Source: an uncultured virus (IMG/VR IMGVR_UViG_3300010391_000110)
Taxonomy: Duplodnaviria; Heunggongvirae; Uroviricota; Caudoviricetes
IMG/VR virus record: IMGVR_UViG_3300010391_000110
Length of the DNA: 64,000 nucleotides
Direction: 5' to 3' (one strand)
In this document: piece after piece, positions 8,385-64,000 of the stretch
How the letters are laid out: every line of letters begins with the position of its first letter
Position numbering within the stretch: position 1 is the stretch's first letter
The notes under the pieces: generated by a model
What the model was told of the DNA's origin: nothing
What the model saw: only the letters and a program-made list of their open reading frames with translations
The model's database searches: none
Made by a program: the position numbers and the translations under genes

Positions 8385-9862
8385 CGAACACCCCCTCTCC
8401 GACCGTACTCCGTGAAGAGGTCAGGCTGCGCGAGCGCGATCCGGGCCAGCTTCGCCCCGAGCTTGCAGAGCGCGTCGTGGTAGGCCTCGCTCAGATGGTC
8501 GCCGCTGAAGTGATGCCCGAACTCATGGACCAGAAGTTCGTCGACCGCCTCGCGCGGCCCCTGATCGAACCACGCATGCCCCAGGCAGGCCAGATTGAAG
8601 GTCAGGGATCCCGGCGCATACCACGCCGCATGGCGCTCCGTGAAGCGGTTCACGATCCTGACGTGGAGGGTCGTGTCGAGAAGAAGGCTCCCGATCATGT
8701 GGGCGTATTTGAAAACCTGCGTCATGCCGTTCGTCCACTTCTCGAGCGGCACCTCGTCGTCCTTCCCGCCGCCGCTCTCGAGCACCTTAGGCGACGGGGT
8801 CACCTGGCCGGCGGGGAGCGCGGCCTCGTGGCGCCTCACGTTCGCCCACTCGTCCCTGGAGAGCGAGCCGCCGTGGATCACCGTGTAGCCCTGGGACATC
8901 GCGAGCTTCGTCCCTTCTGGGTCGGTCAGATCGGAGATCACCCGCTTCTCCCCGAAGCGCTGGGTGACGACGTGCTTGATCGCGGCCGAAGAGATGTCCT
9001 CGTCTTCGGCGGCGTCGCGGACCCACGGGGCCGTCGCCTCCTCCTGCTGGACCTCCTTGTACATCTCGTTCAGGACGAGCGTCCGGATCTCCTGCAGGTA
9101 GGCCGGGGTCACGTTGTCGCGGTCGGAGTTGAGGGGGACCTTCTGCATGACGTTGTAGTGCCACTTGTCGGCGGTCTCGACAACGGGGATCCCCATCTCG
9201 TAGACCGAGGCCGTCTCCCCCTGGAGAGGCTCAAAGACCTCGATGGCCGTCTTCCTGGCCGACCGGCGCAGGACGCCCTCGGCGTCCGCGATCTCGGTCG
9301 GCAGCGTCGCCTCGATCCGGCGTAGCGGCGTCCGGGCGGGCAGGATCGTGGCGCCGTTGAACGTGGTCACGACCCCGGCGGGAGGGATGAGCTTCATGAA
9401 CGCCGCCGCAACGGAGACGCGCTCCTCCTGGTTCATCCGCACCAGGGCCAAGAACCTGGAACCCGTCTCGCGCTTGGTCCGCAGCGCACGCCGGCCGTCG
9501 ACGTCGAAGGCCACTCCTCCGGTCGTCGTCTCGATGCTGGCCGTGCGGCAGAGTGCCAGGACGAGCTTCTCCCCAAGGTTGAAGCGGCCCCGCTTCTCGG
9601 CGTCGGCCTTCCTGTCGCTCTCGGCGTAGAGCGTCCAGGCGTGGGCGAGGTCCTTCCAGCCGTCCGGATGGTCGTCGATGACCTCGATCTGGGCGTAGCC
9701 CTTGATCTCGGAGCGGCGCAGCGAGACGTCGACCTTCTTAGCGTTGGTGTCCCAGCTGTTCTGGAGCAACTCGTAGAGGATGAACTCCTTGCCCTTGCGC
9801 TCCATGAGCTTGGCAAGGCCCTCCTTGTCGACCTGGAACCAAGATGCGGTGGGGACCGTCAC
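8381..9862 (-). CDS. GHKL (HSP90/MutL-like) ATPase fused to a C-terminal HExxH metallopeptidase-like domain
   Basis: ELLQNSWD, IDDHPDG and GRFNLGEK motifs; C-terminal LVHEFGHH...DH; likely start GTG 9862 overlapping the upstream TGA. Confidence 0.8.
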   Translation of the reverse strand: MTVPTASWFQVDKEGLAKLMERKGKEFILYELLQNSWDTNAKKVDVSLRRSEIKGYAQIEVIDDHPDGWKDLAHAWTLYAESDRKADAEKRGRFNLGEKLVLALCRTASIETTTGGVAFDVDGRRALRTKRETGSRFLALVRMNQEERVSVAAAFMKLIPPAGVVTTFNGATILPARTPLRRIEATLPTEIADAEGVLRRSARKTAIEVFEPLQGETASVYEMGIPVVETADKWHYNVMQKVPLNSDRDNVTPAYLQEIRTLVLNEMYKEVQQEEATAPWVRDAAEDEDISSAAIKHVVTQRFGEKRVISDLTDPEGTKLAMSQGYTVIHGGSLSRDEWANVRRHEAALPAGQVTPSPKVLESGGGKDDEVPLEKWTNGMTQVFKYAHMIGSLLLDTTLHVRIVNRFTERHAAWYAPGSLTFNLACLGHAWFDQGPREAVDELLVHEFGHHFSGDHLSEAYHDALCKLGAKLARIALAQPDLFTEYGRRGGVR

Positions 9863-39758: not shown

Positions 39759-41960
39759 ATGAACGGTGTCGCGCCTGGCGGCGCCGTGCCGGTCGTCAAC
39801 TTCCTCCCGGCGCGTGGCGATGCTCGGCGCGGCGCATGGCTGAGAAATTCGGGGGTCCCCGTGGGACTCCCCCTCCAGCCGCGCTTCGGACTCGGACAGT
39901 TTGCCTGGACCCCGCCTCCGACCGGAGACGCGACCGCCACCAAGTGCTACCACTGCGGGCTGCAGGGGTATCGCCTCATGACCCCGACGATGGCTGCCAT
40001 GGTCCCGGGCGGCTGCACGGAGGTGGATGCGACGCTTTGCGCACCGGCCACTGCGCCTGCGCCCGCTCCGACGGGAGGAACTCCCTGGCCGGGGACCGCT
40101 CCCGCGCAGGCCCACTGGACGGACGGGCCGACCCGGATCAACGTCCTCGTGTTCGAACCCGGCGAACTCAAGCCGTACACGGCCGCCGTCCCGGTCATCA
40201 TCTCGGTCTACAAGTACACGGCCATAGGCGCGGCCGTCACGGAAGTGACCCGCGGCACGACCGGCCCCGACGGCCGGTTCACCTGGCAGGGGTCCGCCCC
40301 GAGCGCGAACAAGGACTATCATTTCCGCGTGCAGGTGCAGGCGCCGGGCAACGCGAAGACGCTCGACGTGGCAGCCCGGCTCGCCCACATCATGGGAGCT
40401 GGGGGCGGCGTCGTATCCGAGAGTTCCCTCACCGTCGTGGCCTGTCCGTCCGGAACCGACTCGCTCGTCTGCGCGGTCGCGCAGGCGCAACTCGACTGGA
40501 AGCAGATCTACGACTCCCAGATCGTGGCCTGGGGGAATTCCACGCAGGCCCAGGGGTTCGCGGCGGACATGGCGCATGCGAACGTGCCGCTCACCCACCC
40601 CGCTCTCAAGGCGAGGTGGGACGTGTACAGCTGGTGGCTGGGCGACCGCGGGATCCCGCCCAAGGATTGGCCTCATCTCGACCGTGAGTTCACCCGGACG
40701 TGGAAACTCTTCGCCACGATCCCGTTCCCGCGCTGGCCGGAGATCGAGGACCTCTTCACGAACTGCTGCAAGGGCGTCCCCATCGGGCAGGGGAAGGACA
40801 ATGCGCGCTACGGGGTCGCCTCCCCGAGACTCTACTCGAAGACCTGGTCGGACTACTTCCCCAGGACCGACAAGCAGATCCTCAAGGATATGGCCGCGGC
40901 TTACCTGCTGGCTCTCGGGTCGATCTTCAGGTGCATGGAGCACAAGATCAGGCGGAAGGCTGCGGATACGGAGCGAACCATCAAGAAAATGGCGCTCATC
41001 TCCTACGCCATAGTGCTCGTCAACCTGCCGTGGCTCATCGCCGCCGGGCCCGGAGGCATCGCCGCGCTTGCGACCGAGACCTGGGACTTCGTCCAGATTA
41101 TGCAGGGAGGGTCAGCCCTCGGATACGGCACAAGCGCCGCGATCGCCGCGGCCGCGATGGCGGCCGGGGATCCAGCTCTGGTCGTGGCCGCGCTCGAGCC
41201 GATCATCAACGAGATCCTCGGCACGGCGGACCCAGCTGTGGCCGCGGCCATCAAGGCGATCTATCCGCAGGTCGTCGGCCTGGCGATGTCCGCCGTGGGG
41301 TCCATCGCCGGCGCTTCCGTGCAGCAGGGGTCGAACGTCATCGCCAACGGCGCGTCGAGTTTCCTCGATCTGTCGACGATCGCGTCGGCCATTGCGGTCA
41401 TGGCCGTCAAAGCGATGGCTGCGGTCCCGAAGATGATCGCCGCCGAGAAGATCGAGCAGTTCCATGACGCCGCTAACAGTATGAACCTCGCCGCGGTCGA
41501 CGTGCTCAACTACGTGGCCGGCGAGGAAGTCTCGCCGATCTTCAAGCCGTTCCTCGTGTGGGTGGTCGAGGCGATGGGACTTCTCGACCTGTTCAGTCAG
41601 GCTATCGACCAGTTCCTCGACCAGTTCCAGCAGTCCCTCGCGGTGGGGGACCAGCAGGGCGGAGGCGTGACGGTCGTGCCCGAAGAGGGCGGAGGCGGCC
41701 CGGCCATCGCTCCCACGGACCCGGACGGCGTGCCGACCGACGTGAACGGAAATCCGCTTCCCGGGGGCGAGGCTCCGCTCACCCCTCCGTCCGGCGGCGG
41801 GCAGGTGCCTGGGTCACCGTCCCCGGACATGCCTGACATGCCGATGGAAACGACCACGAGCGGCATCGGCGGGGTGGGCGGGACAAGCCCCGTGACTGCG
41901 ATCGGCGTGGGCGGAGGTGCAGCAGCGCTTCTCCTTGTGGTGGGGAGTGTGCTATCATGA
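39759..41960 (+). CDS. Large leader-bearing membrane protein
   Basis: ...QPRFGLGQ leader; Ala-rich hydrophobic core; C-terminal TM. Confidence 0.75.
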   Translation: MNGVAPGGAVPVVNFLPARGDARRGAWLRNSGVPVGLPLQPRFGLGQFAWTPPPTGDATATKCYHCGLQGYRLMTPTMAAMVPGGCTEVDATLCAPATAPAPAPTGGTPWPGTAPAQAHWTDGPTRINVLVFEPGELKPYTAAVPVIISVYKYTAIGAAVTEVTRGTTGPDGRFTWQGSAPSANKDYHFRVQVQAPGNAKTLDVAARLAHIMGAGGGVVSESSLTVVACPSGTDSLVCAVAQAQLDWKQIYDSQIVAWGNSTQAQGFAADMAHANVPLTHPALKARWDVYSWWLGDRGIPPKDWPHLDREFTRTWKLFATIPFPRWPEIEDLFTNCCKGVPIGQGKDNARYGVASPRLYSKTWSDYFPRTDKQILKDMAAAYLLALGSIFRCMEHKIRRKAADTERTIKKMALISYAIVLVNLPWLIAAGPGGIAALATETWDFVQIMQGGSALGYGTSAAIAAAAMAAGDPALVVAALEPIINEILGTADPAVAAAIKAIYPQVVGLAMSAVGSIAGASVQQGSNVIANGASSFLDLSTIASAIAVMAVKAMAAVPKMIAAEKIEQFHDAANSMNLAAVDVLNYVAGEEVSPIFKPFLVWVVEAMGLLDLFSQAIDQFLDQFQQSLAVGDQQGGGVTVVPEEGGGGPAIAPTDPDGVPTDVNGNPLPGGEAPLTPPSGGGQVPGSPSPDMPDMPMETTTSGIGGVGGTSPVTAIGVGGGAAALLLVVGSVLS

Positions 41961-41979
41961 TCCGTCAGGAGGAGATCCC

Positions 41980-42462
41980 ATGAAAGCAGATGCCTTCAAG
42001 CCGCAGGGCAAGCAGGTCACCGTCCGGAGCGTCGGAGGGGCGCCCGACTCGATGATCGGGCAGCATTTCCGGATGGGCGGCGCGCAGCAGATGCAGGCGC
42101 CTCCGATCGACGTCAGGCAGGGCGGGGATCGCTTCGTGCCCGTCGGAGGGAACGGAGCCCTGCCGCTCGCGACCTAGCCCGCCATTCAGCAGCAGGCGGT
42201 GCCGCAGCGCCAGCAGCCGCGTGCCTTCCAGCCGGCCGCGCAGCAGCAGTCCGTCCAGGAGCAACTCGCATCCAGGCAGCAACTCGCCGCGCAGCAGCAA
42301 CAGCAGCAGCTCGGCGCGGCCCGGCTCGACGACGGAGGCGAGACCTTCGCCGTCTACATCGACGGGGTCGGCCCGGACGGGGCGCCGTTCTCGACCGACG
42401 CCATCGCGGTGCGCTTCCCGGCGGGCTCGCAGCTCTCCGGGATGAGGTACGAGAAGGTCTGA
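41980..42462 (+). CDS. Gln-rich protein interrupted by an in-frame TAG at 42175-42177 (readthrough, nonsense mutation or two genes)
   Basis: SD AGGAGGAG at ATG 41980; ORFs 41917..42177 and 42199..42462 share a frame. Confidence 0.5.
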
Positions 42463-42464
42463 CC

Positions 42465-42830
42465 GTGAACTTCACCATGATCCCCGTCGCGCCGACTCTG
42501 GACGCGGCGCAGCAGGCCAGGCTGGACGGCGTCGTCCAGGCGGCGCGAGAGCTCATCTCCTTCTCGGACGCGGACCCGGCCCTGGCGGCCCGCGCCGGCG
42601 TCGAGGTGCTCGCGCTCGAGGCGAAGATGGCGCTTCAGGGATCAAGGCTCGGGGGAGGATCGATCGACGCCTACGAGCGCCTGGACGGCATCGTCGCGCT
42701 GGCGGGAAACCGGATCGGGGAATGCGTGGCGGCCATGGACCGCGAGATGTCCGGCAGTCCCGTCGAGCGCCTGAGCAGGATCATCGGCCTGGCCGGAGGG
42801 GCCATCGGGGTCATCCGCAGCATCTTTTAA
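42465..42830 (+). CDS. Hypothetical protein with hydrophobic C-terminus
   Basis: 121-aa ORF. Confidence 0.6.
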   Translation: MNFTMIPVAPTLDAAQQARLDGVVQAARELISFSDADPALAARAGVEVLALEAKMALQGSRLGGGSIDAYERLDGIVALAGNRIGECVAAMDREMSGSPVERLSRIIGLAGGAIGVIRSIF

Positions 42831-42847
42831 CGTCGAGAGGAAAGCTC

Positions 42848-43660
42848 ATGAACCATTCGCTGGGTTGAGGGATGAAGGTGAACCTCCGTTCGTCGAACGG
42901 AGTCGCGCCCCGTCAGGCCGCCCCGGAAGAGGAGCATCCGCGCTCGCTCGGCTGAGGGGGCGGCGGCGCGTTCGTCGCGCCTCCTCCGTCGGAGGAGAGA
43001 CAGTCCCTCCCGCCCGGCTACACCGCGGCCATCCGCGGGAGCGTGCCGGCGCAGCAGGTCGCCCGGCCGGTCTCCGGACGTCCCGGGGGTTTTCAGATCG
43101 GATCGCCCGGCCCGCGCTTCGTCCCGACCGCGCACGAGAAGGGGTTCCGTCCACTGCTCATGGGCGGCGTCCTCGGGCAGGTGCGGCTCGCCCAGCCCGG
43201 CCAGCAGTCCAGGCCGATCCTGGGGCAGGCCACGACGACGGTGACGCCCACGACGGAACCCGTCGAGTCGCAGCCGGTCGGGCAGCCCAAGAAACTCCCC
43301 GCCACCGAGGCGCAGGCGGGTCAGGGTCAGGAATCCAACTGGCGCCGGAAGGCCTGGGGGCATTTCCGCCGCATGGATGCCGCCGAGATGGCGGTCTACC
43401 TGCATGGCATCGAAGAGCGCATGGACCAGGTCAAGGTCCCCCGCGGCATCGTCGAGCAGATCCGGAAGCGCCTGGAGAGCTTCGCCACGACGGCGAAGAC
43501 CGACGCCGAGGCGATCACCATCGACGAACAGGAGGTCGCGGCGCTCGACAACGCCATCATGTTCCTCGAACAGACCGAGGCGGCGCAGGGGCCGAATCTC
43601 GGCGCCATCGCGGCGGCGGTGGCGGGTCTCGGCCTTCTGACGGCGGTGCTGGTGGCGTGA
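42848..43660 (+). CDS. TM-anchored protein with two in-frame TGA codons (candidate double selenoprotein)
   Basis: SD GAGG 7 nt before ATG 42848; MNHSLG*GMKV...PRSLG*GGGG... continues in frame into ORF 43043..43660. Confidence 0.7.
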
Positions 43661-43995
43661 TGATGCGGATCGAGAAGCCGTCCGGATTCTCTCCCGCCCG
43701 CCAGTTCGCGCTCCGTCCGGTTGTGCCCGCGCCCCGTCCGGTTGTGCCCGCGCCCGCGCCACGCCGGCTGGAGGCCTCGCACCCCGTCCTCGCCCAGGCC
43801 GTCCTGGCCGATCCGGAGCTTCGCGAGATCGGGGGGTTCCTGTCCGAGGCCCGGGAGCAGCTCGCCGCGATCGAGCGCAGCTACGTGAACCTGGCCATCG
43901 CCCTCGGGCAGGCCGAGGCCGACCTGGCCGTGGCACAGGCCCGAGCGACCGTCGAGATGTACGAGGCCGCCTACGTCCGGGCGGGAGGAGCGTAA
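43660..43995 (+). CDS. Leader-bearing coiled-coil protein
   Basis: TGATG overlap; 21-bp tandem duplication encoding RPVVPAP twice. Confidence 0.65.
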   Translation: MMRIEKPSGFSPARQFALRPVVPAPRPVVPAPAPRRLEASHPVLAQAVLADPELREIGGFLSEAREQLAAIERSYVNLAIALGQAEADLAVAQARATVEMYEAAYVRAGGA

Positions 43996-43997
43996 CC

Positions 43998-44291
43998 GTG
44001 AAGATCCGCGTCACCGGCTGAGAACTGTCCGGACTCGTCAGGCCCGTCGGGCCCGTCACGATCGAGAAGACCAAGGTGGTCCAGAAGGACGTCCTCGTCG
44101 CCAAACTCTCCGGGGCGGCGCAGGGTACGATTGCTGTTGTGCGCGACGCCAAGCACAACTATCATGTGGTGGCTCCGAAGGAGCTCGGAGGAACGCGGGC
44201 CGTTCCCGCGGATTCCCTCACCGACTGTCTGCATCAGGCGGTTTACGAGATATCGGAAGCGAAGAAGAGCCGAGGAGGTCGGAAGCGATGA
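43998..44291 (+). CDS. Small protein with in-frame TGA at codon 8 (candidate selenoprotein)
   Basis: SD GGAGGAG, GTG 43998; MKIRVTG*ELSG... is in frame with ORF 44076..44291. Confidence 0.7.
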
Positions 44292-44758
44292 ACGCAACGG
44301 GATTCCCGGTCCAGTTCCCCACGGCCCCGTCGATGCCTCAGGTGCGGCTGGCGCAGCCGTGGGCCCCGGCGCGGCGTCAGCAGCCCCTGGCCGTCCGCGC
44401 GACGCGCCCCGTGGTTCCGACCCTGGGCGGCTCCAGGGTGGGGCAGACCACCGCGCAGCTGTGGGCTCGCGGGTCGGACATCAGCTTCTCGATCCTGACG
44501 GGCGTCGCCGCCATCGTGAGCGGCATCGCGCTCGTCGTGAACTTCGGGAAGGGCGACCCCGCCATTCCGCCGCGCATCGTGCCCGGCATGCCGCCCGTCC
44601 CAGGACGCTCGGCGACCTCCGGGAAGCCGATGTGGTACGTGATCGGCGGGCTGATCTCGGTCCTGGGGGCCGCGAACATCTGGTCGAGCATCAACCGGGC
44701 CTCGGCGATCCAGGCGGCATCGGCGCCGCCGGCCGCTGCGCCGCCGTCGGGGGGCTAG
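44288..44758 (+). CDS. Leader-bearing two-TM protein
   Basis: MPQVRLAQPWAPA...SRVGQ leader. Confidence 0.7.
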   Translation: MNATGFPVQFPTAPSMPQVRLAQPWAPARRQQPLAVRATRPVVPTLGGSRVGQTTAQLWARGSDISFSILTGVAAIVSGIALVVNFGKGDPAIPPRIVPGMPPVPGRSATSGKPMWYVIGGLISVLGAANIWSSINRASAIQAASAPPAAAPPSGG

Positions 44759-44793
44759 GCCTTTCGGACAGACAGACGAGGAGGACTCAAGCA

Positions 44794-45138
44794 ATGCAAG
44801 CCATCTCCTTTCCGGCCACCTCGATGCCCGGCCGGTGGCGGCCGGACCACCAGGTCGACGCCGCCCTGCACGGGACGTGGACGCCCGCGCAGCGCCAGGC
44901 GTGGGCGGTCGCCCGGAGCCACGCGCTCCAGGGGCGCCTCTCCCAGGCTTCGACCGCGGCGGTCGAGACGCCCACCGAGCTCATGATCTCGGTGTCGGCG
45001 GCCTTGGCCGCGCTCTTCGGAGGCCTGTCGCTGGCCTTCGGCGCGCCGAGGGGCGCACCCACGCTCACGTGGGTGGGCATCCTGGCGGCCACGGTCGGCG
45101 GCTTGAAGCTCCTGCAGACGGGCTCCAAGCTCGCGTAG
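44794..45138 (+). CDS. Leader-bearing two-TM protein
   Basis: SD GAGGAGG; WTPA...GRLSQ leader. Confidence 0.65.
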   Translation: MQAISFPATSMPGRWRPDHQVDAALHGTWTPAQRQAWAVARSHALQGRLSQASTAAVETPTELMISVSAALAALFGGLSLAFGAPRGAPTLTWVGILAATVGGLKLLQTGSKLA

Positions 45139-45146
45139 GAGGCGGC

Positions 45147-45458
45147 GTGAAAGTGGACAACCCTGCGGTGATGCTCTCGGCCCGTCCGCCCATGGCGAGG
45201 CCGTGGAAGCCCGCTCCGTTCCGGCAGGGACCGTCTCCGTTCAGCAGGAGCCTGGCCGGGGCGTCCGTAGGGCAGCCGTCGAAAGGGACGCTCTTCGACG
45301 ACCCCTTCGTGGCCCTTCTCCTGAGCGGCGCTTCGACGGTCCTTGCGGCCATCAGCACGGTCAAGCTGGAGGGCGCCGCGCGCATCCTGGCGTGGGCGGT
45401 CATGATCGGGGCCGGCACGCAGACGCTCGTCAGCGGGGTGCGCTATCTCCGGTCCTAG
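45147..45458 (+). CDS. Leader-bearing two-TM protein
   Basis: SD AGGAGG; WKPAPF...SVGQ leader. Confidence 0.65.
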   Translation: MKVDNPAVMLSARPPMARPWKPAPFRQGPSPFSRSLAGASVGQPSKGTLFDDPFVALLLSGASTVLAAISTVKLEGAARILAWAVMIGAGTQTLVSGVRYLRS

Positions 45459-45732: not shown

Positions 45733-46146
45733 ATGGCCGTCGAACTGATCGAACTCGGAGCCCGGCGCGGGAAGATCCTGCGTAAAGGGTACACGCGGAA
45801 GGGCGGGAAGCGCGTCAAGCAGACGTACGTGAAAGACACTGGCAAGCCCGGCAAGACGCCCAAGTCGAAACGCGTGCTCCCGCCCATCAAGCCGGGCACC
45901 CTAGCCTGCGAAGGCGACGCCTGGAGGCACGGCGACGCGCCCGAGAAGCGGATGCGGGTCCTGCGGTGCATCATCGTCAGCCGGCACGTCCCGTGCGTGA
46001 CAGTCATCCGGGACCTGAACGTCGTGGCCAACTATTCGGAGCGGACGTCCCCGGCCACACACAAGGCCGCTCGAGAAGATATGGAACGCCTCCGGATGCA
46101 GGGCGTCTGTCTCAGGAGCAGATCGAACGGACAGGCGGCTCCTTGA
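45733..46146 (+). CDS. Basic protein resembling an NCLDV family (DUF5771-like)
   Basis: RKGYTRK...KDTGKPGK...LPPIKPGTL...VIRDLNVVANYSERTSP; similarity recalled from memory. Confidence 0.5.
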   Translation: MAVELIELGARRGKILRKGYTRKGGKRVKQTYVKDTGKPGKTPKSKRVLPPIKPGTLACEGDAWRHGDAPEKRMRVLRCIIVSRHVPCVTVIRDLNVVANYSERTSPATHKAAREDMERLRMQGVCLRSRSNGQAAP

Positions 46147-55560: not shown

Positions 55561-56508
55561 ATGACTTTCGGGTCAGGTTTCGGGAAGGATTGGCGGACGT
55601 CGCACCGGAAGCGCGTCGGCACCGCCAAGCCGGGGCAGGCGAACGCCAATATCATCCGTCCCATGACGAACCGGACTCCGTCCGTGCCCGCCAAGGCTGT
55701 CCGGCACGAACCCGGCCCGTCCGTTCAGGCGCCGGCCGTGCTCTACGATTCGAACGGTCCCGCGCTCCCGCCTCCTCAACTTGGCCCCGCCGTCTTCATC
55801 CCTGCCGTCCAGGGGGACGAACGGCCGCCCGGCCAGTTCAGCGTGGTGATCCTCTCGGCGAGCCCCGCCAACCTCAAGGCCTCCCTGCGCGGCCTGTTCA
55901 TGAACGAACCCGGCATGATGGGTCGGGTGATCGTGGTCGATGACGGAGCCAAGAAGGGGTTTGAGGATCTGCCTGGCGTGGTCTGGGTCGACGGCCAGAA
56001 ACCCTTCGTCTTCGCCCGGAATTCCAACATCGGGATCCGGAAGGCCGGGCAGCATGACGTCATCCTGCTGAACGACGATGCCGTGCTCCAGACTCCCGGC
56101 GGGTTCACACTCCTCGAGCAGGCCTGCCGTCTTCGTCCGGGCCTGGGCATCTGTTCGGCCGGCATCATGGGTCACGTAGGAAACCCGAATCAGGTCTCCC
56201 AAGGCACCCCGGGCGTCCGTCTTGAACTCCAAAAACTCGCCTTCGTCTGCGTCTACATCCCGCGTTCGGTGATCCACGAGATCGGGATGCTCGATGAACG
56301 CTTCGTCGGGTACGGCTATGAGGACGACGATTACTGCACGCGGGTGTCGCGGGCCGGCCTCTCGATGGGCGTCTTCGACGGGTGTTTCGTCGAGCACGAG
56401 TCCGTCCCCTCGACCTTCCGCGCCAAGCCGGATTACGCCCAGCTCATCACGGAGAACCGCCTGCGCTACGAGGAGAAGTGGCGCGATCCGTCAAAATCCG
56501 GACGCTGA
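55561..56508 (+). CDS. Glycosyltransferase family 2
   Basis: VIVVDDG, FARNSNIG, LLNDD and LDERFVGYGYEDDDY motifs. Confidence 0.9.
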   Translation: MTFGSGFGKDWRTSHRKRVGTAKPGQANANIIRPMTNRTPSVPAKAVRHEPGPSVQAPAVLYDSNGPALPPPQLGPAVFIPAVQGDERPPGQFSVVILSASPANLKASLRGLFMNEPGMMGRVIVVDDGAKKGFEDLPGVVWVDGQKPFVFARNSNIGIRKAGQHDVILLNDDAVLQTPGGFTLLEQACRLRPGLGICSAGIMGHVGNPNQVSQGTPGVRLELQKLAFVCVYIPRSVIHEIGMLDERFVGYGYEDDDYCTRVSRAGLSMGVFDGCFVEHESVPSTFRAKPDYAQLITENRLRYEEKWRDPSKSGR

Positions 56509-56516
56509 GGGGACGC

Positions 56517-57191
56517 ATGGTTGAAACCAAGTCAAGGGCGCTGACGGTCGTCGTCCTCTGCTACAACAAGATGCAGGAGAGCAAGCGCTTCATGGCCTCG
56601 CTCAAGAAGCAGGCCCGGCAGCCGGACCAGGTGGTCGTGGTCGACGACTGCTCGACGGATGCGCCGGCCTCGTACTACCGGGACGTCTTCAAGCCGTGGC
56701 CGCTCATCCGTCTGCCGGAGAATCGCGGACAGGGGAATGCCCGAAACGTGGGCGCCTCGTTCGCGAAGGGGGAGCTGATCATCTTCCTGGACGGCGACAT
56801 CGACATGCGGCCCGACATGCTTCAGAAGCTGGAAGGGGCCCTCAAGGCCAACCCCGACGCATCGATCGCCTATTCCCATTATGACAGGATCGGGACGAGG
56901 ACCGATCACGTCAGGGCCCTTCCGTGGAGTGCCCAGCGGCTGAAGGAGCAGAACTACGTCACCATGATGGCCATGGTCCGCCGGCAGGACCTCCCCCAGC
57001 CTCCGTTCGACGAGAGCCTTGAGCGGTACGAGGACTGGGACCTCTGGCTCACGATGTCCGAGGCCGGCAAGAAGGGCGTCATGGTCCCGGAGATCCTGTT
57101 CGGCGCCTATTACAAGACCGGAGATCTGTCCGGCACCGGAGAGTCCGGGTCTTGGTACGCGGCTGTCCGAAAGAAACATCGGTTGGGTTAG
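56517..57191 (+). CDS. Glycosyltransferase family 2
   Basis: VVVDDCSTD, ARNVG, FLDGD and EDWDLW motifs. Confidence 0.9.
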   Translation: MVETKSRALTVVVLCYNKMQESKRFMASLKKQARQPDQVVVVDDCSTDAPASYYRDVFKPWPLIRLPENRGQGNARNVGASFAKGELIIFLDGDIDMRPDMLQKLEGALKANPDASIAYSHYDRIGTRTDHVRALPWSAQRLKEQNYVTMMAMVRRQDLPQPPFDESLERYEDWDLWLTMSEAGKKGVMVPEILFGAYYKTGDLSGTGESGSWYAAVRKKHRLG

Positions 57192-57195
57192 GCCG

Positions 57196-57915
57196 ATGTT
57201 CCCGAGGACCTTCTTCGCCCCGTTCCAGAGGCGGTCTCCGAAACGGAGGCTGAGCGCCGTCGTCCTCTCCTACAACAAGGAGTGGGTGATCCGGCCGTTC
57301 TTCGCATCGCTGCAGAAGCAGACCCGGAAGCCGGACCAGGTCGTCGTCGTTGATGACGCGTCAACCGACAGGACCTCCGAGGTCCTGGTGAAGGAATTCC
57401 ACCAATACCAGATAATCCGGCTGCCAGAAAACAGGGGGCAATCGGCGGCGAGGAACGTCGGATTCCACGCAACGAGCGGCGACTACATCATCTTCCTGGA
57501 CGGCGACATCATCATGAAGCCGGACATGCTGGCCGCGATGGAGCGCGTGCTCGAGAACGTGCCAAACGCCAGCATCGCCTACTGCCACTACGACCGATCC
57601 GGGTCAAGGCGGGATCATGTCCGGTCGTTCCCGTGGGACGCTGACCGGCTGAAGCGTGAGAACTACATCTCCATGGTCAGCATGATCCGGAGAAAGGACA
57701 TGCCGAGCCCGCCGCTCGACGAAAGCCTTCGGCGGTACGAGGACTGGGACCTCTGGATCCGGATGATGAAGGCAGGGAAGCGCGGCGCACTCGTCGATCA
57801 GGTCCTCTTCGTCGCGCGCTATCAGCCGGATGACCTGTCCGGATCCGGAGAATCCATTCAGTGGCGGGAGATCGTGGAGCAGAAGCACGGTCTTCCGTCA
57901 TGGAAAGAAGGATAG
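57196..57915 (+). CDS. Glycosyltransferase family 2 (close paralog of 56517..57191)
   Basis: VVVDDASTD, ARNVG, FLDGD and EDWDLW motifs. Confidence 0.9.
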   Translation: MFPRTFFAPFQRRSPKRRLSAVVLSYNKEWVIRPFFASLQKQTRKPDQVVVVDDASTDRTSEVLVKEFHQYQIIRLPENRGQSAARNVGFHATSGDYIIFLDGDIIMKPDMLAAMERVLENVPNASIAYCHYDRSGSRRDHVRSFPWDADRLKRENYISMVSMIRRKDMPSPPLDESLRRYEDWDLWIRMMKAGKRGALVDQVLFVARYQPDDLSGSGESIQWREIVEQKHGLPSWKEG

Positions 57916-57928
57916 GACGGAGGAAGGC

Positions 57929-58879
57929 ATGGGCGCTCTCTCGGGTATGCGGATCATGGTGACCGGGGCTTCCGGTTTCCTCGGTAGGCACGTCGTGGAG
58001 GCCCTGGCCGGCATCGGGGCGGAGGTCGTTCCGGTGAGCCGGAGGACCGGGTACGACCTTCGGAACGAAGGGGACGCCCTGTCCGCCATGCTCGTCTCCC
58101 GTCCGGACATCGTGGTTCATTTGGCTGCCACCGTCGGCGGCATCGGGGCGAACATGGCGTCTCCAGCCGTCTTCTTCCGGGACAACATGGCGATGGGCAT
58201 GAACATGATCGAGGCCGCCGTGAAGCAGAGGGCGCGCCTAGTCATGCTCGGGACGGTCTGCAGTTACCCGAAGGACTGTCCGATCCCGTTCAAGGAGGAA
58301 TCCTACTGGGAGGGGTATCCGGAACCGACCAACGCGCCCTACGGGATCGCCAAGAAGGCCCTGCACGTCATGTGCAAGGCCTACAGGGACCAGTATGGCC
58401 TGACCTATTCGTATCTCGTCCCCTGCAACCTCTACGGGCCTGGAGACAACTTCAACGACCAGGCGTCGCACGTCATCCCGGCCATGATCAAGCGCTTCGT
58501 GGAAGCCCGGGAACAGAAGCGCGAACAGGTTCATTGCTGGGGCACCGGGAAGGCCACGCGATCCTTCCTCTACGCTCCAGATGCCGCCAAGGCGATCGCT
58601 TCGGCCTGCGCCACACCGATGACCCATGAGGGCGTCATCAATCTTCCCGGGACGGAAGAGATCGCCATGAGCGCGTTGGCCGCCATGGTCGCCGATGCGT
58701 GCAGGTACACGGGCCGGATCGAATGGGACGCCCACCGCCCCGACGGGCAACCCAGGCGAATGGTGGACGGCGAACTCGCTGGGAAGGTGCTCGGCTGGCG
58801 GCCGGAGACCTCGTTCAAGGACGGCCTACGGGCGACGGTGGCCTGGTTCGAACAGACCGTCGGGGCGATGAAAGCGTGA
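57929..58879 (+). CDS. fcl: GDP-L-fucose synthase
   Basis: TGASGFLG, HLAATVGGIGAN, GTVCSYPK, YGIAK, NLYGPGDNF, SHVIPA and PDGQPRR motifs. Confidence 0.93.
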   Translation: MGALSGMRIMVTGASGFLGRHVVEALAGIGAEVVPVSRRTGYDLRNEGDALSAMLVSRPDIVVHLAATVGGIGANMASPAVFFRDNMAMGMNMIEAAVKQRARLVMLGTVCSYPKDCPIPFKEESYWEGYPEPTNAPYGIAKKALHVMCKAYRDQYGLTYSYLVPCNLYGPGDNFNDQASHVIPAMIKRFVEAREQKREQVHCWGTGKATRSFLYAPDAAKAIASACATPMTHEGVINLPGTEEIAMSALAAMVADACRYTGRIEWDAHRPDGQPRRMVDGELAGKVLGWRPETSFKDGLRATVAWFEQTVGAMKA

Positions 58880-59781
58880 ACCACGTCGACTTCCTGGCGC
58901 TCTCCCAGTGGCATGGCGATCTTCCGAGAGAGCGCCAGGACGCGTTCAAGGCGCTGCATCCCTCGCAACTGGGGGACCGCCTGCTTCCGGGGTCCCATGG
59001 GAGCGGCCTGTACGAGAACCTCGTCGCGGCGGGCCGGCGGTTCGGGGAACTTGCCGCATCGGGCTCCCCCTTCTACCTCGCCAGGGTCGGCGATTGCGAG
59101 AACGCGGTTTTATCCTGCGGATATTTCCCGCACACGGGACATTCGCTTCCACCTCATGCCTTCCATGCGTGCGGGTTTGGGAAAAACGTCCTCTCCGCGT
59201 ATCGCGGGGAACTGATCGAGGCCTTCCGGAACGCCCACCTGCTGGGGGTTCAGCAGAACTGGCGGCCTTGGACGCTCAACACCGTGGGCATCTTCCACAT
59301 GCTCGGACTCCCGGTGTCCCATCCGAACGCGGTCGAGGTCCACCTGCCCTACCAGATGCTGGTGGATGGAACGCTCTTCGGATATCTGCAGGGCAAGCGG
59401 ATCGTCCTGGTGGGGGCGCTGGCGCCCGCCCTTGCCCAGGCGTGGGTGAGGACGGAGTTCATCTCCGCTCACCTCCGGTTCGGGCCGCTCAACTGGGTCA
59501 AGTCCATCCAGGCAGTCCCGCTCCGTGGGCGGGATTTCGGGGGTGGGGCCCAGAACGACATAGATGCGGCCTCGGAGACGCTGTCCAAGATGAACTTCGA
59601 TGTGGCGCTCATCGCCGCCGCCGTCCCAGCCAAGATCATTGCATACAGGGTCTGGAAGATGGGCCGCGTTGCGCTGGACGTCGGCTTCGTCTTCGACGCG
59701 CTCCTCGGGATGAATCCAAGTGAACGCGCGGTGAGGCCCTGCTTTCGCGACGTTCAGAAGTGGCCGGAAAAGACATGGTGA
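58876..59781 (+). CDS. GT-D-fold (DUF1792-like) glycosyltransferase
   Basis: LARVGDCE, FDVALIAAAVPAK and ALDVG motifs. Confidence 0.7.
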   Translation: MNHVDFLALSQWHGDLPRERQDAFKALHPSQLGDRLLPGSHGSGLYENLVAAGRRFGELAASGSPFYLARVGDCENAVLSCGYFPHTGHSLPPHAFHACGFGKNVLSAYRGELIEAFRNAHLLGVQQNWRPWTLNTVGIFHMLGLPVSHPNAVEVHLPYQMLVDGTLFGYLQGKRIVLVGALAPALAQAWVRTEFISAHLRFGPLNWVKSIQAVPLRGRDFGGGAQNDIDAASETLSKMNFDVALIAAAVPAKIIAYRVWKMGRVALDVGFVFDALLGMNPSERAVRPCFRDVQKWPEKTW

Positions 59782-60617
59782 TCCGAGAACTCTTCCATTG
59801 CCGCTTTGACATTGTCGGACAACCTGTGCTTGACGGCCGCCTTCTCGAACATCCTGCCCCCGAACCCGCGCAGCAGGCCCCTGTCTGCAGCCAGCGCCGC
59901 CATGGTTTCTGCCGCAAGGCGCCCGTGAGGGGCGGCGATGAAATCGACTCCGGGCTCGTAGGGGAACGGATCCTCGCAGGTTTCGGAAACGACCGGAAGC
60001 CGGTAGGCCGCGGCCAACGCAAACCTGAGCGGCTCGAAGTACGGATCCCCGTCCTGGTGGATGTTGAGCAGGAGCGATGCGCCGAGGAGCCTCCGGTGTC
60101 TCTCATTACCGAATGCGTTCTGTCCGATCGAGCACCGGAGCGCGCCCACCACGGCGTCCCTTCTCGGGTTCATCCAGGCCATGAGGCAGACGTCGTTCGG
60201 TTCCGGGGCTCCAGCCCCTTCCGCAAGCCGTTCGTCGCTTCCGACCGGGACGAAACGGAACTGTTCCGAGTGCGGCCTGAGCTTGGAGTAGAGCGCTCGG
60301 TCGGATACCCAGACCTCGTCCACTCCGGTGGACAGGAGGTTGTGGGCGATCCACCGGAATTCGGCGCCTCCGAAAAGGACCGCGCGCTCGAGGAACCACC
60401 AGACCACTCCGCAGTGCCGTCCCGGAGCGCCGGCAAGCGCGGAGATGGCGGCGCGCTCCTCACCGCTCCAGACCGGGGACACGATGTAGGTGCAGGTCCG
60501 ACCTGGAGCCGTAGCGGAAAGCGGGCACGACTCGAATCCTCCGACCCTGACCAGGCTCCGGTAGTCCGTATACGACGGGAACTGGACGTCGGAATGCGCG
60601 AACACGATTTCCCGCAT
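59754..60617 (-). CDS. GT-B-like glycosyltransferase
   Basis: LLLNIHQD..YFEPLRF...PVVSE; inverted relative to the cluster. Confidence 0.65.
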   Translation of the reverse strand: MREIVFAHSDVQFPSYTDYRSLVRVGGFESCPLSATAPGRTCTYIVSPVWSGEERAAISALAGAPGRHCGVVWWFLERAVLFGGAEFRWIAHNLLSTGVDEVWVSDRALYSKLRPHSEQFRFVPVGSDERLAEGAGAPEPNDVCLMAWMNPRRDAVVGALRCSIGQNAFGNERHRRLLGASLLLNIHQDGDPYFEPLRFALAAAYRLPVVSETCEDPFPYEPGVDFIAAPHGRLAAETMAALAADRGLLRGFGGRMFEKAAVKHRLSDNVKAAMEEFSDHHVFSGHF

Positions 60618-60649
60618 CGGACCTCGAGCATAGCCGGAATAGCCTGAAG

Positions 60650-61285
60650 ATGGAACTGGTCAACGTCGTGACGGCGCTTTCACGGCCCGAAAACATCCCG
60701 GTCATCCTGGAGGGGATGGAGGAGGCCGTGGAATGGTCCGACGTGGAGGTCCTCTGGGTCATCGTCCTGGATGCACACCGGAGACTTCCGCCCAAGGTAC
60801 TCGACCGGCTCGATCGCGCGCGCGGAGTCAGGGTCCTCAAGGCCGCGTATCCAGGCTGGCCGGCGCGGTACGGGATCCCGCAGAAGAACATGGGGATCGA
60901 CCTGTGCCGGAATGGATTCCTGTACATCCTCGACGACGACAACATCGTCCACCCGGACCTGTTCCGGGAGCTCGGGGATGCCTTCAAACGGCATCCTGGA
61001 AAGCTGGCGTTTGCCTTCGGCCAGCGCCGGTGGGATCGCTATGGGGACATGATGCCTGCACCGGAAAGGATGGGCATCGGAAAGATCGACAATTCGATGT
61101 TCGTGGTCCACACGAGGCTCGTCGGATCGGAGAGATACAACGGGAATCTAGCCGGCTGGGAGGACTACTACTTCTTCAAGGGGTTGCACGACGCTCACCC
61201 GGACGCGTTCGTAATCCTTGGCCGATATCTGGCCTATTACAACTACCTCTCCCACCACCCTTGGCGCACGGGAGGGTCCGCATGA
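60650..61285 (+). CDS. GT-A glycosyltransferase
   Basis: VVTALSRPEN, ILDDDN and IDNSMF motifs. Confidence 0.75.
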   Translation: MELVNVVTALSRPENIPVILEGMEEAVEWSDVEVLWVIVLDAHRRLPPKVLDRLDRARGVRVLKAAYPGWPARYGIPQKNMGIDLCRNGFLYILDDDNIVHPDLFRELGDAFKRHPGKLAFAFGQRRWDRYGDMMPAPERMGIGKIDNSMFVVHTRLVGSERYNGNLAGWEDYYFFKGLHDAHPDAFVILGRYLAYYNYLSHHPWRTGGSA

Positions 61286-62043
61286 TCGCGTTCCCGGAGC
61301 TCATCAAATGGGGTCGCCTCGGGAACCATCTTTTCGAGATGGCGACCACGATCGCCCTGGCTAAGGACCACGATGACGAGTTCGGGTTCAACAGGTCCTG
61401 GAACGGGAGCCCGTGGTCGTACTTCGACAGGTTCCCAATCGGAAAGTTGCCATGCTTCCACGACCAGGTCCCTCCGGGGCCGGAATATCGCGAGCCGGTG
61501 TTCCACTACACGCCCATCCCGTACCAGAAGGACCTGCGCCTGTACGGGTACTTCTTCAGCCCGAAGTACTTTCAGCACCGCGCGGACCTGATCAGATCCC
61601 TGCTGACCCCGTATGGAGTGCCGGATCGCTCGGCCTATAAGAACGTCTGCAGCGTCCATGTCCGGCGTGGGGATTACGTCCACCTTCAGGACCAGCATCC
61701 GGTCCTTCCGATCCGGTATTACGAGACGGCCACGAACATGATGGCCCAGAAGTACGGGGTCGGCCATTTCATCGTCTTCTCGGACGACTCTGCGTGGTGC
61801 AGGGGCGTCTTCGGGAAGAACTTCGAGATTGCGCACGATGCCCAGGACACCCGGCACCTGGCCACCATGATCGCCTGCGAGCATCACATCGTTGCCAACT
61901 CGACGTTTTCCTGGTGGGGGGCGTGGCTGAATCCAGCTCCCGGGGCGATCGTCCGCCCGTCCAAATGGTTTGGCCCTGCCTACAGCCACGACGAGAAAGA
62001 CCTCTGGCCGGAGTCGTGGATCCCGGTGGACTGCAAGCCGTGA
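61282..62043 (+). CDS. Alpha-1,2-fucosyltransferase (GT11)
   Basis: GRLGNHLF, LYGYF, VHVRRGDY, FSDD and ANSTFSWWGAWL motifs. Confidence 0.92.
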   Translation: MIAFPELIKWGRLGNHLFEMATTIALAKDHDDEFGFNRSWNGSPWSYFDRFPIGKLPCFHDQVPPGPEYREPVFHYTPIPYQKDLRLYGYFFSPKYFQHRADLIRSLLTPYGVPDRSAYKNVCSVHVRRGDYVHLQDQHPVLPIRYYETATNMMAQKYGVGHFIVFSDDSAWCRGVFGKNFEIAHDAQDTRHLATMIACEHHIVANSTFSWWGAWLNPAPGAIVRPSKWFGPAYSHDEKDLWPESWIPVDCKP

Positions 62044-62795
62044 TCACATTCCCCGACCTCGGGAGAAGGGGGCGTCTTGGAAACCAGCTGTTCCAGATGG
62101 CGGCGACGATCGCGACCGCCACCGAACATGGAGACCTCTTCGGGTTCCCTGAGTGGCCGTATGCCCAGGAGTTCCCCATCTCAGGATGCTTCTACGACAG
62201 GCTTCCCAAAGGCCCGGAACACAGGGATTTCAGCCCGGGGTACAGGCCGATCCCTTACGCCGGCGGATTGCGCCTGTACGGGTACTTCGCCAGCGAGAAG
62301 TTCTTCGCGAAATCGGCAGTCCTGGTCCGTAAGCTGCTGACTCCGAAAAAAGCCGCCCAGGGCGGGGATTACGGGAGATCGGCCAGCGTGCATGTGCGCC
62401 GGACGGACTACGTGGGGCACCCACAATACGCGCAACTCGGGATCGGATACTACGCGAGAGCCATGGAGTTCATGAGGGCGAACAGGGATATCGACCGGTT
62501 CACGCTCCTGTCTGACGACCCGGAATGGTGCGGGAAGGCGTTCTCTGGGTTCAAGGACATCGAAATCGTCGAACCCCTGCATGATTCGTGGCATCTCGCA
62601 ATCATGGCGTCGTGCGCCCACCATGTGATCGCCAACTCGACGTTCTCCTGGTGGGGGGCGTGGTTGAATCCTTCCACGGAAAAACTTGTAATCGCTCCGA
62701 GTCGATGGTTTGGGGCGGGCTCAAGCCCCCCGCAGCCGGACGCATCGGACCTGTACCCTGAAGGCTGGTTGCTCGAATCCGTGGAGGAACCGTGA
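62040..62795 (+). CDS. Alpha-1,2-fucosyltransferase (GT11), second copy
   Basis: GRLGNQLFQ, VHVRRTDY and ANSTFSWWGAWL motifs. Confidence 0.92.
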   Translation: MITFPDLGRRGRLGNQLFQMAATIATATEHGDLFGFPEWPYAQEFPISGCFYDRLPKGPEHRDFSPGYRPIPYAGGLRLYGYFASEKFFAKSAVLVRKLLTPKKAAQGGDYGRSASVHVRRTDYVGHPQYAQLGIGYYARAMEFMRANRDIDRFTLLSDDPEWCGKAFSGFKDIEIVEPLHDSWHLAIMASCAHHVIANSTFSWWGAWLNPSTEKLVIAPSRWFGAGSSPPQPDASDLYPEGWLLESVEEP

Positions 62796-64000
62796 GGATC
62801 GCATCTGCGCTCGTCACCGCCGATCGCCCCGGAAACTGTCTTTCGGCCACCCTTGAAAGCCTTGCCGATACAGGGTTCTTCAAGGTGCCGGAGTTTCTTC
62901 CGCTGCACATCTTCTTCGACCGGAAAGACCTCCCGGCCGTCTCGGTGCATCAGGGGACGCCAGGCCTCACGTTCCACGGAATGAGCGACGTCGAGTTCGC
63001 GGAGTATGAGAAGCTGGAGCCGATCGGAAGGTGTGCGTTCGCCCACCACAGGCCGATCAGGTTCATGGCCGAACTCGCCCGGTTCGACCTTCTCGATGCC
63101 GCCCTTGTCCTCGAGGACGACGTGGTGTTCTCTAAGGGCTGGATCGACTACATGCGCTGCGTCCTTCATGAGATCTCGGAGAACATGAGGGCTAACGCCC
63201 AGCCAGCGACGCGCTGGATCTGCTCCCTGTACAGGCTGCATCAGGACGTCGAGCGGTTCCACCGGGCCGGCTTGCGGTGGAGTCGGGTGGCCAATTCGGA
63301 CTTCTTCGGAACCCAGGCGAACATCTATGGGAAGGACGCCGTCCGGACCCTTCCGGAATGGGTCTTCCAGAAAACGCTTGTCGAGAAGTTGTACGCGATC
63401 GACCTTGCGGTATGCGCGTATTCCGAATGGAACGGGATTCCCACGTACATCTCGGTGCCCAGCGTCGTCCAACACGCCGGGCGGTTTACCACGGGCCAGA
63501 GCCGGTGGTTTCACCAGTCCCCGTGCTTCTTCGACGCGGCGCCGGAATGGCCGGACCCTCCCGACGTCGGATCCGGAGGCGGGGAGGAGGTTGTCGCGGC
63601 CGCCGCCGGCCTGACCGGGATCGCGGCGTCCGCGACGATCATCCAGGCCGGCGCCTACGACGCCTCGACGACCCACCGCCTGGCGGCCGCGTTCGGAGAG
63701 GACCGCGTGCCGGCCATCCACATCTTCGAGCCCGACCCAAGGAACGTGGGCAGGATCGCGGGGATGACGCTACCCAGGAACGCGCGCCTCATCGGCAAGG
63801 CTCTCGGCGTGTCGGAAGGGGACGCCACGCTTCACATGTCGGACGAATTCCCGATGTTCTCGTCCACGAGGAAGCCCAAGCTGTCCCCGCTCCCGTCCGT
63901 CGAGGTCAGGTTCCAGAAGACGTCCGCCGTCCCCGGGACGACGCTGGACGGCTACGCGAAGGCGGCCGGACTGGAGAAAGTGGATCTCCTGTGGTGCGAC
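62792..64000 (+). CDS. GT-A glycosyltransferase fused to FkbM-family methyltransferase (runs off the window; not in ORF track)
   Basis: Manual translation from GTG 62792: LVLEDDVVF, FFGTQA, PSVVQHAG, then IIQAGAYDA, IFEPDPRN, TTLDGY...VDLLWCD. Confidence 0.8.
   Translation, partial: MRIASALVTADRPGNCLSATLESLADTGFFKVPEFLPLHIFFDRKDLPAVSVHQGTPGLTFHGMSDVEFAEYEKLEPIGRCAFAHHRPIRFMAELARFDLLDAALVLEDDVVFSKGWIDYMRCVLHEISENMRANAQPATRWICSLYRLHQDVERFHRAGLRWSRVANSDFFGTQANIYGKDAVRTLPEWVFQKTLVEKLYAIDLAVCAYSEWNGIPTYISVPSVVQHAGRFTTGQSRWFHQSPCFFDAAPEWPDPPDVGSGGGEEVVAAAAGLTGIAASATIIQAGAYDASTTHRLAAAFGEDRVPAIHIFEPDPRNVGRIAGMTLPRNARLIGKALGVSEGDATLHMSDEFPMFSSTRKPKLSPLPSVEVRFQKTSAVPGTTLDGYAKAAGLEKVDLLWCD

Follow-up and report, generated by a model that had tools for sequence, protein, structure and literature searches.

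A small gene of a phage-like element in which UGA at codon 8 is a likely selenocysteine codon

The record IMGVR_UViG_3300010391_000110 of IMG/VR, filed as an uncultured virus (Caudoviricetes), contains a stretch of 64,000 nt that we analysed as a whole (the window). On its plus strand lies a small gene of 97 codons, 43998..44291, with a GTG start and a TGA stop (44289-91), and with a further TGA in frame at codon 8. Does translation end at that early UGA, or is it decoded as selenocysteine (Sec)? Comparison of related sequences makes it likely that the gene encodes a 97-residue protein with Sec at residue 8, inserted in a SelB-dependent way and directed by a hairpin in the codons that follow. 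The evidence comes from the homologues, from the hairpin, and from a second gene of the same operon with two more TGAs in frame. The coordinates of the features are collected in Table 1.

The initial annotation, made from the letters of the DNA alone, had proposed a strong Shine-Dalgarno (SD) sequence, a start at GTG 43998 and a frame that stays open past 44076 to 44291. All of these are present at those positions. The SD-like sequence was read directly from the DNA, and GGAG-type sites are found at the corresponding place in the DNA of related metagenome loci. The first codons are GTG AAG ATC CGC GTC ACC GGC, followed by the TGA. Gene callers have used a later GTG (44076), which is in frame with GTG 43998; the valine that it encodes in the full gene, V27, aligns inside a conserved strand of the family. 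The signal from the G+C content of third codon positions (GC3) begins in this frame at about 43975, not at 44076. Homologues, like the GC3 signal, cover the stretch upstream of 44076, which bears out the proposed start at GTG 43998.

What stands at codon 8 in relatives of the gene? A metagenome scan gave 18 related loci, and the tblastn matches all begin at query residue 1. Codon 8 is TGA in 10 of the 18 (L001, L002, L003, L004, L005, L006, L007, L011, L013 and L014), TGC or TGT in the other eight (L008, L009, L010, L012, L015, L016, L017 and L018), and nothing else in any of them. Two pairs are near-duplicates (L006/L007 and L013/L014), L001 and L002 are close to each other, and the distinct TGA forms number nine including the window. 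The TGA-form loci show 43 to 72% protein identity, with frames intact on both sides of the TGA. A protein search with the read-through sequence found 38 proteins, and 37 homologues were aligned, the family as a whole covering residues 1-97. Seven of these are full-length (P0020, P0022, P0026, P0028, P0030, P0035 and P0039). They begin with MK[FI][KR]M[CT]xC.W..GL.RP, and the TGA of the window falls on their second, invariant Cys. The remaining aligned homologues are mostly gene calls that start 1 to 6 codons past the Cys/TGA column. A profile search of 1.84 billion representative proteins gave only 37 at E <= 0.001, among them seven further full-length representatives, all with Cys at the column; full-length protein homologues with Cys at this position are therefore 14 of 14. 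Gene callers truncate the family systematically, so that public databases hold mostly N-terminally cut fragments.

The alignment of homologues that the initial annotation had called for shows a shared N-terminus. The homologues span the whole N-terminal stretch rather than beginning at the MVQKD position, and the TGA column is Cys wherever TGA is absent. Recurrence of the same codon in 10 of 18 independent loci speaks against a sequencing error, the other doubt raised at the outset. The start codon is always exactly seven codons ahead of codon 8 (in L004, with a GTG three codons further up). The seven codons before the TGA change synonymously and keep the peptide [M/V]-K-[I/F]-x-[V/M/I]-[T/S]-x; L001 and the window, for instance, differ there by AAA/AAG, AGA/CGC, ACT/ACC and GGT/GGC. 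By codon position (1/2/3), pairwise differences amount to 0.44/0.36/0.60 before the TGA and 0.41/0.22/0.56 after it. It was concluded from this pattern and from the conserved peptide that the seven upstream codons are translated. Two residues before the column, TGA forms have T or S and Cys forms have C or T. On the tree of the family three Sec/Cys changes are required. Seven members form a Sec-only group, and L011 and L013 fall among the Cys forms; the TGA form L013 is sister to the Cys form L010 with support 92/94. More than one Sec/Cys switch in the family appears likely from these relationships.

Is there a signal next to the TGA that could mark it for recoding? The initial annotation had pointed to a hairpin whose GUC loop lies 24 nt past TGA 44019, almost the same spacing as at another in-frame TGA, 42866, where the loop lies 23 nt downstream. 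Both the hairpin and the near-equal spacing are as it described them. RNAalifold on the nine distinct TGA forms predicts exactly this helix, with six pairs, and nothing else. Paired cells amount to 88.9% as compared with 37 to 54% for slid partners, and none of 500 shuffles reached 88.9%. The alignment pair 63-76 is GC in four TGA forms, CG in three and UA in one. This covariation couples the Arg codon with the codon after Gly, as CGC-GCG (Ala), CGU-ACG (Thr) and AGG/CGG-CCN (Pro). The RNA pairing, as judged from these sequences, is maintained even where the amino acid has to change (P/A/T).

The hairpin was compared with the consensus of bacterial selenocysteine insertion sequences (bSECIS). 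As given in PMC13188914 (Fig. 2 legend), this consensus has a loop of 3 to 9 nt on a stem of 4 to 16 bp, G at the first two positions of the loop (mostly G[G|U]), a distance of 16 to 37 nt from the UGA and a minimum free energy <= -7.5 kcal/mol. We coded it as a strict filter, with no bulges and with the energy of the hairpin alone. The window hairpin falls within all four constraints (loop GUC of 3 nt, 5 bp, 24 nt, -7.9 kcal/mol). Eight of the nine distinct TGA forms of the small gene pass and none of its seven Cys forms does (0/7); the sequences are related, so that 8/9 and 0/7 do not count independent events. Among all TGA triplets of the window on both strands 171 of 1488 (11.5%) pass, among TGAs that end GC3-coherent open reading frames (ORFs) one of 17, and among the neighbouring stops 42460, 43658 and 44289 none of three. 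All three internal TGAs (42866, 42953 and 44019) pass, and so does the in-frame TGA of selD in a bacterial genome, G001, which served as the positive control (n = 1). Stems in the relatives have 5 to 8 bp. Loops at the homologous hairpin of the nine forms are GUC (five), GUU (two), CGUGGA (L013) and GCC (L005), and L011 has a loop GGAC on a 4-bp stem. The loop follows the TGA by 24 nt in the window, as it does in six of the eight other distinct TGA forms. In a 33-nt local fold the window reaches -11.4 kcal/mol, the TGA forms -10.8 to -17.7 kcal/mol and the Cys forms other than L016 and L017 -1.5 to -9.4 kcal/mol. The proposal that the downstream GUC-loop hairpin assists in recoding the TGA of codon 8 is supported by the Cys column and by the covariation, and the reading of this hairpin as a SECIS by its agreement with the consensus in the TGA forms only.

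Table 1. Positions of the features discussed for the small gene and its neighbours (numbering of the window).
Feature	Position	Strand	Basis or remark
Shine-Dalgarno-like sequence GGGAGGAG	43983..43990	+	read directly; 7 nt ahead of GTG 43998
In-frame TGA, codon 8, proposed selenocysteine codon	44019..44021	+	TGA/Cys column in loci and proteins
bSECIS-like apical hairpin GGCCC-GUC-GGGCC	44041..44053	+	codons 15-19 (R-P-V-G-P); 5' arm GGCCC 44041-45, loop GTC 44046-48, 3' arm GGGCC 44049-53
GTG, gene-caller start of the 71-aa form P0002	44076..44078	+	codon 27 (V27) of the full gene
Second candidate selenoprotein gene, ~270 codons, C-terminal membrane anchor	42848..43660	+	GC3, tblastn, conserved TGAs
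In-frame TGA of that gene	42866..42868	+	motif [LM]G-U-G[LM].V.LRS
Hairpin CTCCGTTC-GTC-GAACGGAG	42884..42902	+	8 bp, loop 23 nt past TGA 42866
Second in-frame TGA of that gene	42953..42955	+	motif [LMIV]G-U-[GK]
Hairpin CTCCTCC-GTC-GGAGGAG	42981..42997	+	7 bp, loop 32 nt past TGA 42953
Coiled-coil-like gene, 111 codons, between the two candidate genes	43660..43995	+	ATG overlaps upstream stop (TGATG)
Downstream gene, 156 codons, two hydrophobic segments	44288..44758	+	syntenic in L001-L003, L005

The gene that carries TGA 42866 lies two genes upstream of the small Sec/Cys gene. It runs from ATG 42848 to TGA 43658-60, with a GC3 signal in the same frame from about 42850. By tblastn it is found over residues 1-269 in L001 and L002, 4-269 in L003 and 3-268 in L005. 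TGA 42866 is present in the window and 13 loci (L001, L002, L003, L005, L006, L007, L011, L012, L013, L014, L015, L016 and L017), four of which (L012, L015, L016 and L017) have the Cys form of the small downstream gene. A second in-frame TGA, 42953, is shared by the window and nine loci (L001, L002, L003, L005, L006, L007, L011, L012 and L013); in L008 and L009 the whole N-terminal motif is missing. The parallel that had been drawn with the 42866 site holds, and the neighbouring gene adds a third conserved TGA to it. In the bSECIS filter 10 of 11 distinct sequences pass at the 42866 site and seven of nine at the 42953 site. Both hairpins covary, the stems of the relatives at the same places having quite different sequences (AGGUCGUC-GGA-GACGACCU and GAUGCG-GUC-CGCAUC; a further pair is GUCGUCA-GGA-UGACGAC versus GUCAUCA-GGA-UGAUGAC). 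A protein search gave only the truncated call of the window and one other truncated protein, with no Cys-form homologue among them. The two TGAs are for this reason rated as probable, not near-certain, Sec codons, and conservation and the hairpins are what argue for them.

Decoding of UGA as Sec would call for a host with the machinery. We infer that the host has SelA, SelB, SelC and SelD and inserts selenium. A scan of a genome collection found one partial locus only (L019), in G001, a metagenome-assembled genome (MAG) of an uncultured member of the Solibacteraceae; among 401 genomes of its phylum only G001 matched. At L019 (3001-3078, contig C76 of G001) only the last ~26 residues of the family (EVPADSLTDCLH...) are left, behind an unrelated signal-peptide-like ORF. 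This is probably the remnant of an old insertion in a selenocysteine-using Solibacteraceae MAG. G001 has tRNA-Sec (69.9 bits, cut-off 47), SelB (334.6 bits, cut-off 242) and SelD (362 bits), the last encoded by a gene with an in-frame TGA. G001 is a selenocysteine user, and gives indirect support to the Sec reading in the window.

Several observations weigh against recoding at codon 8. The strict filter rejects L011 and accepts L005 only through a different hairpin at 33 nt. The stem in the window is short (5 bp) and, taken alone, barely past the energy limit (-7.9 vs -7.5 kcal/mol). The Cys forms L016 and L017 also fold locally (-14.1 and -14.8 kcal/mol), yet fail the strict filter, and the conserved R-P-x-G-P codons by themselves impose some of the complementarity. 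Rfam gave no family above the gathering scores in the window, and for 42700-44400 only two rows at chance level (E 1.2 and 4.9). The window is without a tRNA gene, and its scanned ORFs are without a SelA, SelB or SelD domain. If only well-supported branches count, the tree forces a single Sec/Cys change. Lastly, an ATG is found one or two codons past the TGA in six of the nine distinct forms (TGA GAG ATG in L001, L002, L004 and L005; TGA ATG in L011 and L013).

These ATGs would suit a true stop at TGA 44019, by which MKIRVTG is a leader ORF and a shorter protein arises by re-initiation or from a separate start at GTG 44076, the hairpin being a by-product or a coupling or pausing signal. The constraint from conserved codons and the local folds of L016 and L017 count on the same side, as do the many gene calls that start just past the TGA (M[SAG]GL...). 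It is hard to reconcile with this view that the stop coincides with the very column at which all TGA-free homologues have Cys, for which a leader ORF gives no reason. In the window, L003 and L006, moreover, no ATG, GTG or TTG after the TGA could yield the conserved segment GLVRPxGPVKIEKT, and a start at 44076 would remove most of the first predicted strand of the protein. The SECIS consensus separates TGA from Cys forms, and the covariation costs amino-acid changes. A true stop is improbable on this evidence. We regard as improbable too that the UGA is read through other than as Sec, by a near-cognate tRNA (Trp, Cys or Arg) or a suppressor tRNA, at low efficiency and stimulated by the hairpin. 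The loop start (GU/GG) and the spacing of 23 to 24 nt fit the SelB consensus, and Cys as the only alternative at the column fits Sec. No tRNA is encoded in the window, although the ~14 kb of the 78,431-nt contig outside it could hold one. In favour of such read-through, the host Sec machinery is presumed rather than seen directly, and the two TGAs of the upstream gene stand in Gly-rich contexts with no Cys homologue found. To our knowledge, recoding of a UGA assisted by a hairpin directly downstream is known in bacteria only for SelB.

A broken gene (a nonsense change from TGY to TGA) or an assembly or sequencing error has a very low probability. TGC or TGT turns into TGA by one base change, and the window has an apparently real in-frame TAG (42175) that is absent in relatives; the TGA of codon 8, however, recurs in 10 of 18 loci with intact flanking frames, at the protein identities given above, and there is no decay elsewhere in the gene. 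Over 42800-44400 the Logan contig of the probable source run has a depth of 24 and differs from the window only at 43570; TGAs 42866, 42953 and 44019 are thus unchanged in this second assembly, which, the run being probably the source sample, is not independent of the window. Contigs of three other sequencing runs (X2-X4) gave only short diverged pieces that are uninformative on the TGAs, and no RNA run was among those listed for the sequence. Equally hard to credit is a genetic code of the element in which TGA is a sense codon (tables 4 or 25). Stop usage seems to point that way at first, as TAG is commoner than TGA (26 TAG, 17 TGA and 7 TAA at the ends of 50 GC3-coherent ORFs), and TGA read as Gly would lengthen the glycine runs of the upstream gene. 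But TGA does end 17 of these 50 ORFs, the frame signal ends or changes at TGA 42460, 43658 and 44289, and the stop of the small gene itself is TGA in five sequences (the window, L002, L003, L005 and L011). A systematic search of the window for stop codons flanked on either side by coding signal turned up no additional TGA of this kind; 42866 and 44019 fell outside the length and GC3 limits of that search and were judged separately. TGA still terminates neighbouring genes, so that the recoding would be local and context-dependent and the code is not reassigned. A +1 frameshift of the release factor 2 type was considered and dropped, the frame being the same before and after each TGA. The prevalence of TAG as a stop is unusual at the G+C content of the window (65.7%), and the replication genes on the minus strand at 17.7-24.6 kb all end in TAG.

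In the Sec reading, a ribosome would reach the UGA at 44019 with the hairpin in codons 15-19 ahead, acting as a bacterial SECIS. The SECIS would recruit host SelB-GTP-Sec-tRNA(Sec), and Sec would be inserted instead of termination by release factor 2. The residue would then lie in a [T/S]-x-U motif ([C/T]-x-C in Cys forms) on a flexible N-terminal arm, in front of a domain of five strands and a helix with a basic C-terminal tail. The gene would work in an operon of small, mostly membrane-associated proteins, in which the gene two positions upstream adds two Sec codons of the same kind. From the flexible [T/S]-x-U arm, and from the two LG-U-G arms of a partner protein next to it, we infer no more than that the Sec arm may serve in redox chemistry, in metal binding or in Se-S/Se-Se linking within a membrane-associated assembly. 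As a speculation, the ATG just past the TGA (in 6 of 9 distinct forms) might give a shorter product when selenium is scarce. A wider picture, to which we give somewhat less than an even chance, is a virus-like mobile element of sediment and soil bacteria with a selenoprotein module of its own: two genes, three UGA-Sec codons and private SECISs that hijack host SelB. All three Sec residues would sit in membrane-associated proteins, each on a flexible arm that is glycine-rich or N-terminal. Through selenenylsulfide or diselenide bonds, or as a redox or metal relay, they might hold together or trigger the assembly of a particle or envelope.

Searches for known domains left the protein unassigned. 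Neither Pfam nor NCBIfam gave a family at E <= 0.01 for the read-through protein or for the natural Cys forms P0022, P0042 and P0045, and no PHROG model was hit. An AlphaFold2 (AF2) model built from 46 sequences has a mean predicted local distance difference test (pLDDT) score of 69.3. Residues 1-15 are below 50 and predicted to be disordered. Strands are predicted at 20-29, 32-39, 43-51, 54-58 and 66-69, followed by a C-terminal helix (74-92) and a basic tail; strand 1 (20-29) lies upstream of the GTG 44076 start used by gene callers. Foldseek found no match in the PDB at E <= 0.001, and the best VIA-align Z score (6.2) is within background, with no convincing known fold. A language-model look-up of P0022 ranked clusters of NTR modules first (0.94, 186 of 256 shared features). 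The likeness to NTR/TIMP modules (PF01759, PF00965) consists of the predicted five-strand domain with C-terminal helix and a Cys-x-Cys near the N-terminus. On the other side, there is no Pfam match, no NTR/TIMP chain is among the top 50 fold matches, and the look-up matches are eukaryotic secreted proteins. The relation to NTR/TIMP is taken as a lead only.

The conserved operon order is a 121-aa gene, the two-TGA gene, a 111-aa coiled-coil gene, the Sec gene and a gene with two transmembrane segments. The stop of the Sec gene overlaps ATG 44288 of the last (ATGA). Pfam and NCBIfam gave no match at E <= 0.01 for the two-TGA gene and the other neighbours of the Sec gene, NCBIfam within a scope that excluded 43660..43995; the latter gene was queried one base off (from 43665) in the PHROG, NCBIfam and tblastn searches, whose results do not cover it, and in frame in Pfam, where no family was found. 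A tandem duplication of ~21 nt (CCGTCCGGTTGTGCCCGCGCC x2, 43713-43754) in this 111-codon gene gives RPVVPAP twice. Further upstream, ORFs 41917-42177 and 42199-42462, in the same frame, are one uninterrupted gene in L001, L002 and L003. The TAG that separates them (42175-42177) is in a Pro/Ala/Gln-rich linker; either a nonsense mutation has split the gene here, or this may be a site of read-through.

What carries the operon? Replication genes of phage type are found in the left part of the window (D5-like primase-helicase, AAA_24, two helicases, Mom, GP88 and DUF6011). Primases similar to this one occur in 1282 phage records, with identities below 60%. The Mom-family protein (7599-8420, minus strand, E 7.6e-26) belongs by its name to a DNA-modification family of phage Mu. 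Of 40 proteins compared with PHROGs, the 37 from ~30 kb on the plus strand (25545-55552), including one queried out of frame, gave no match. Pfam matches in this region are weak only, and many of the proteins encoded there are small and have hydrophobic segments; it may hold the structural or late genes of a virus or mobile element of a type not described so far. Within it, 45140-45455 was queried out of frame in the PHROG and domain scans, and 45733-46146 (plus strand) has a weak sub-threshold match to DUF5771 (22 bits, cut-off 26.2). Pfam hallmarks of terminase, portal, major capsid and tail genes were not matched among the scanned ORFs. A late protein of 728 aa has Uroviricota proteins as its nearest Atlas clusters, at only 0.76, and tblastn against phages gave no match for it. 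The DNA of 42400-45200 had no match in the phage collection, and the family alignment against IMG/VR gave 32 pattern matches, none of them confirmed. The right end of the window (56382-64000) is a glycosylation cluster, which may belong to the element or to the host, with glycosyltransferases (GT2 and two GT11 fucosyltransferase-like), a GDP-L-fucose-synthase-like gene and an FkbM methyltransferase. The family is unconfirmed in IMG/VR and absent in 400 of the 401 genomes of the phylum of G001, and we therefore speak of a phage-like element, not a proven phage. The carrier is taken as a phage-like mobile element whose viral nature is itself only presumed.

Very probably the small gene belongs to a new family of selenoproteins with an unusual carrier, and among 1.84 billion proteins this family has only 37 representative clusters. 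If the wider picture drawn above is true, the two genes would encode the first selenoproteins known from a bacterial virus or mobile element, with Sec decoded as early as codon 8. A mobile element in need of host Sec machinery would have its host range tied to selenium metabolism. A Sec codon at position 8, with the SECIS beginning 19 nt later, would offer a compact natural test of the earliest action of SelB in elongation. Small 'hypothetical' genes with SD-less starts in high-GC metagenomes may likewise be selenoproteins. Full-text literature searches, judged by titles and abstracts among the papers listed, gave no natural phage selenoprotein.

How does the locus compare with known systems? 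Recoding of UGA through a downstream hairpin bound by SelB is textbook knowledge. Bacterial selenoprotein genes with a SECIS inside the ORF (prototype E. coli fdhF; model of Zhang and Gladyshev, as set out in PMC13188914) share with this gene an in-frame UGA with Cys homologues, a small GC-rich stem-loop within the coding sequence whose loop of 3 to 9 nt opens with G then U/G, a spacing of 16 to 37 nt, and UGA as a stop elsewhere. Unlike in those genes, Sec is here at codon 8 on a predicted disordered arm with no recognised redox fold, the stem in the window has only 5 bp, and the gene belongs to a phage-like element rather than a cellular metabolic operon. The same source, a 2026 review, catalogues in its Table 1 119 prokaryotic selenoprotein families or subfamilies; of the entries consulted, most carry Pfam, NCBIfam or CDD models. 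Like many predicted families of that table, the present one is a small protein of unassigned function with a short Sec motif and Cys-form homologues; unlike most of the entries consulted, it matches no Pfam or NCBIfam model (the comparison was made by these two, with CDD left out). The words TxU, SxU, GUG, phage, viral, mobile and Acidobacteria are absent from the text of PMC13188914 that was available. The viral selenoproteins named in the accessible part of PMC8310308, a 2021 review of recoding, are only the poxvirus glutathione peroxidases (molluscum contagiosum and fowlpox). Those belong to eukaryotic viruses, derive from captured cellular glutathione peroxidase genes and use a eukaryotic SECIS, while here no cellular counterpart was found, the signal is of bacterial type and the viral nature is presumed. 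What the two have in common, going by PMC8310308 in that part, is a virus-borne gene whose UGA is decoded by the Sec machinery of the host, and, in fowlpox as here, a SECIS inside the coding region.

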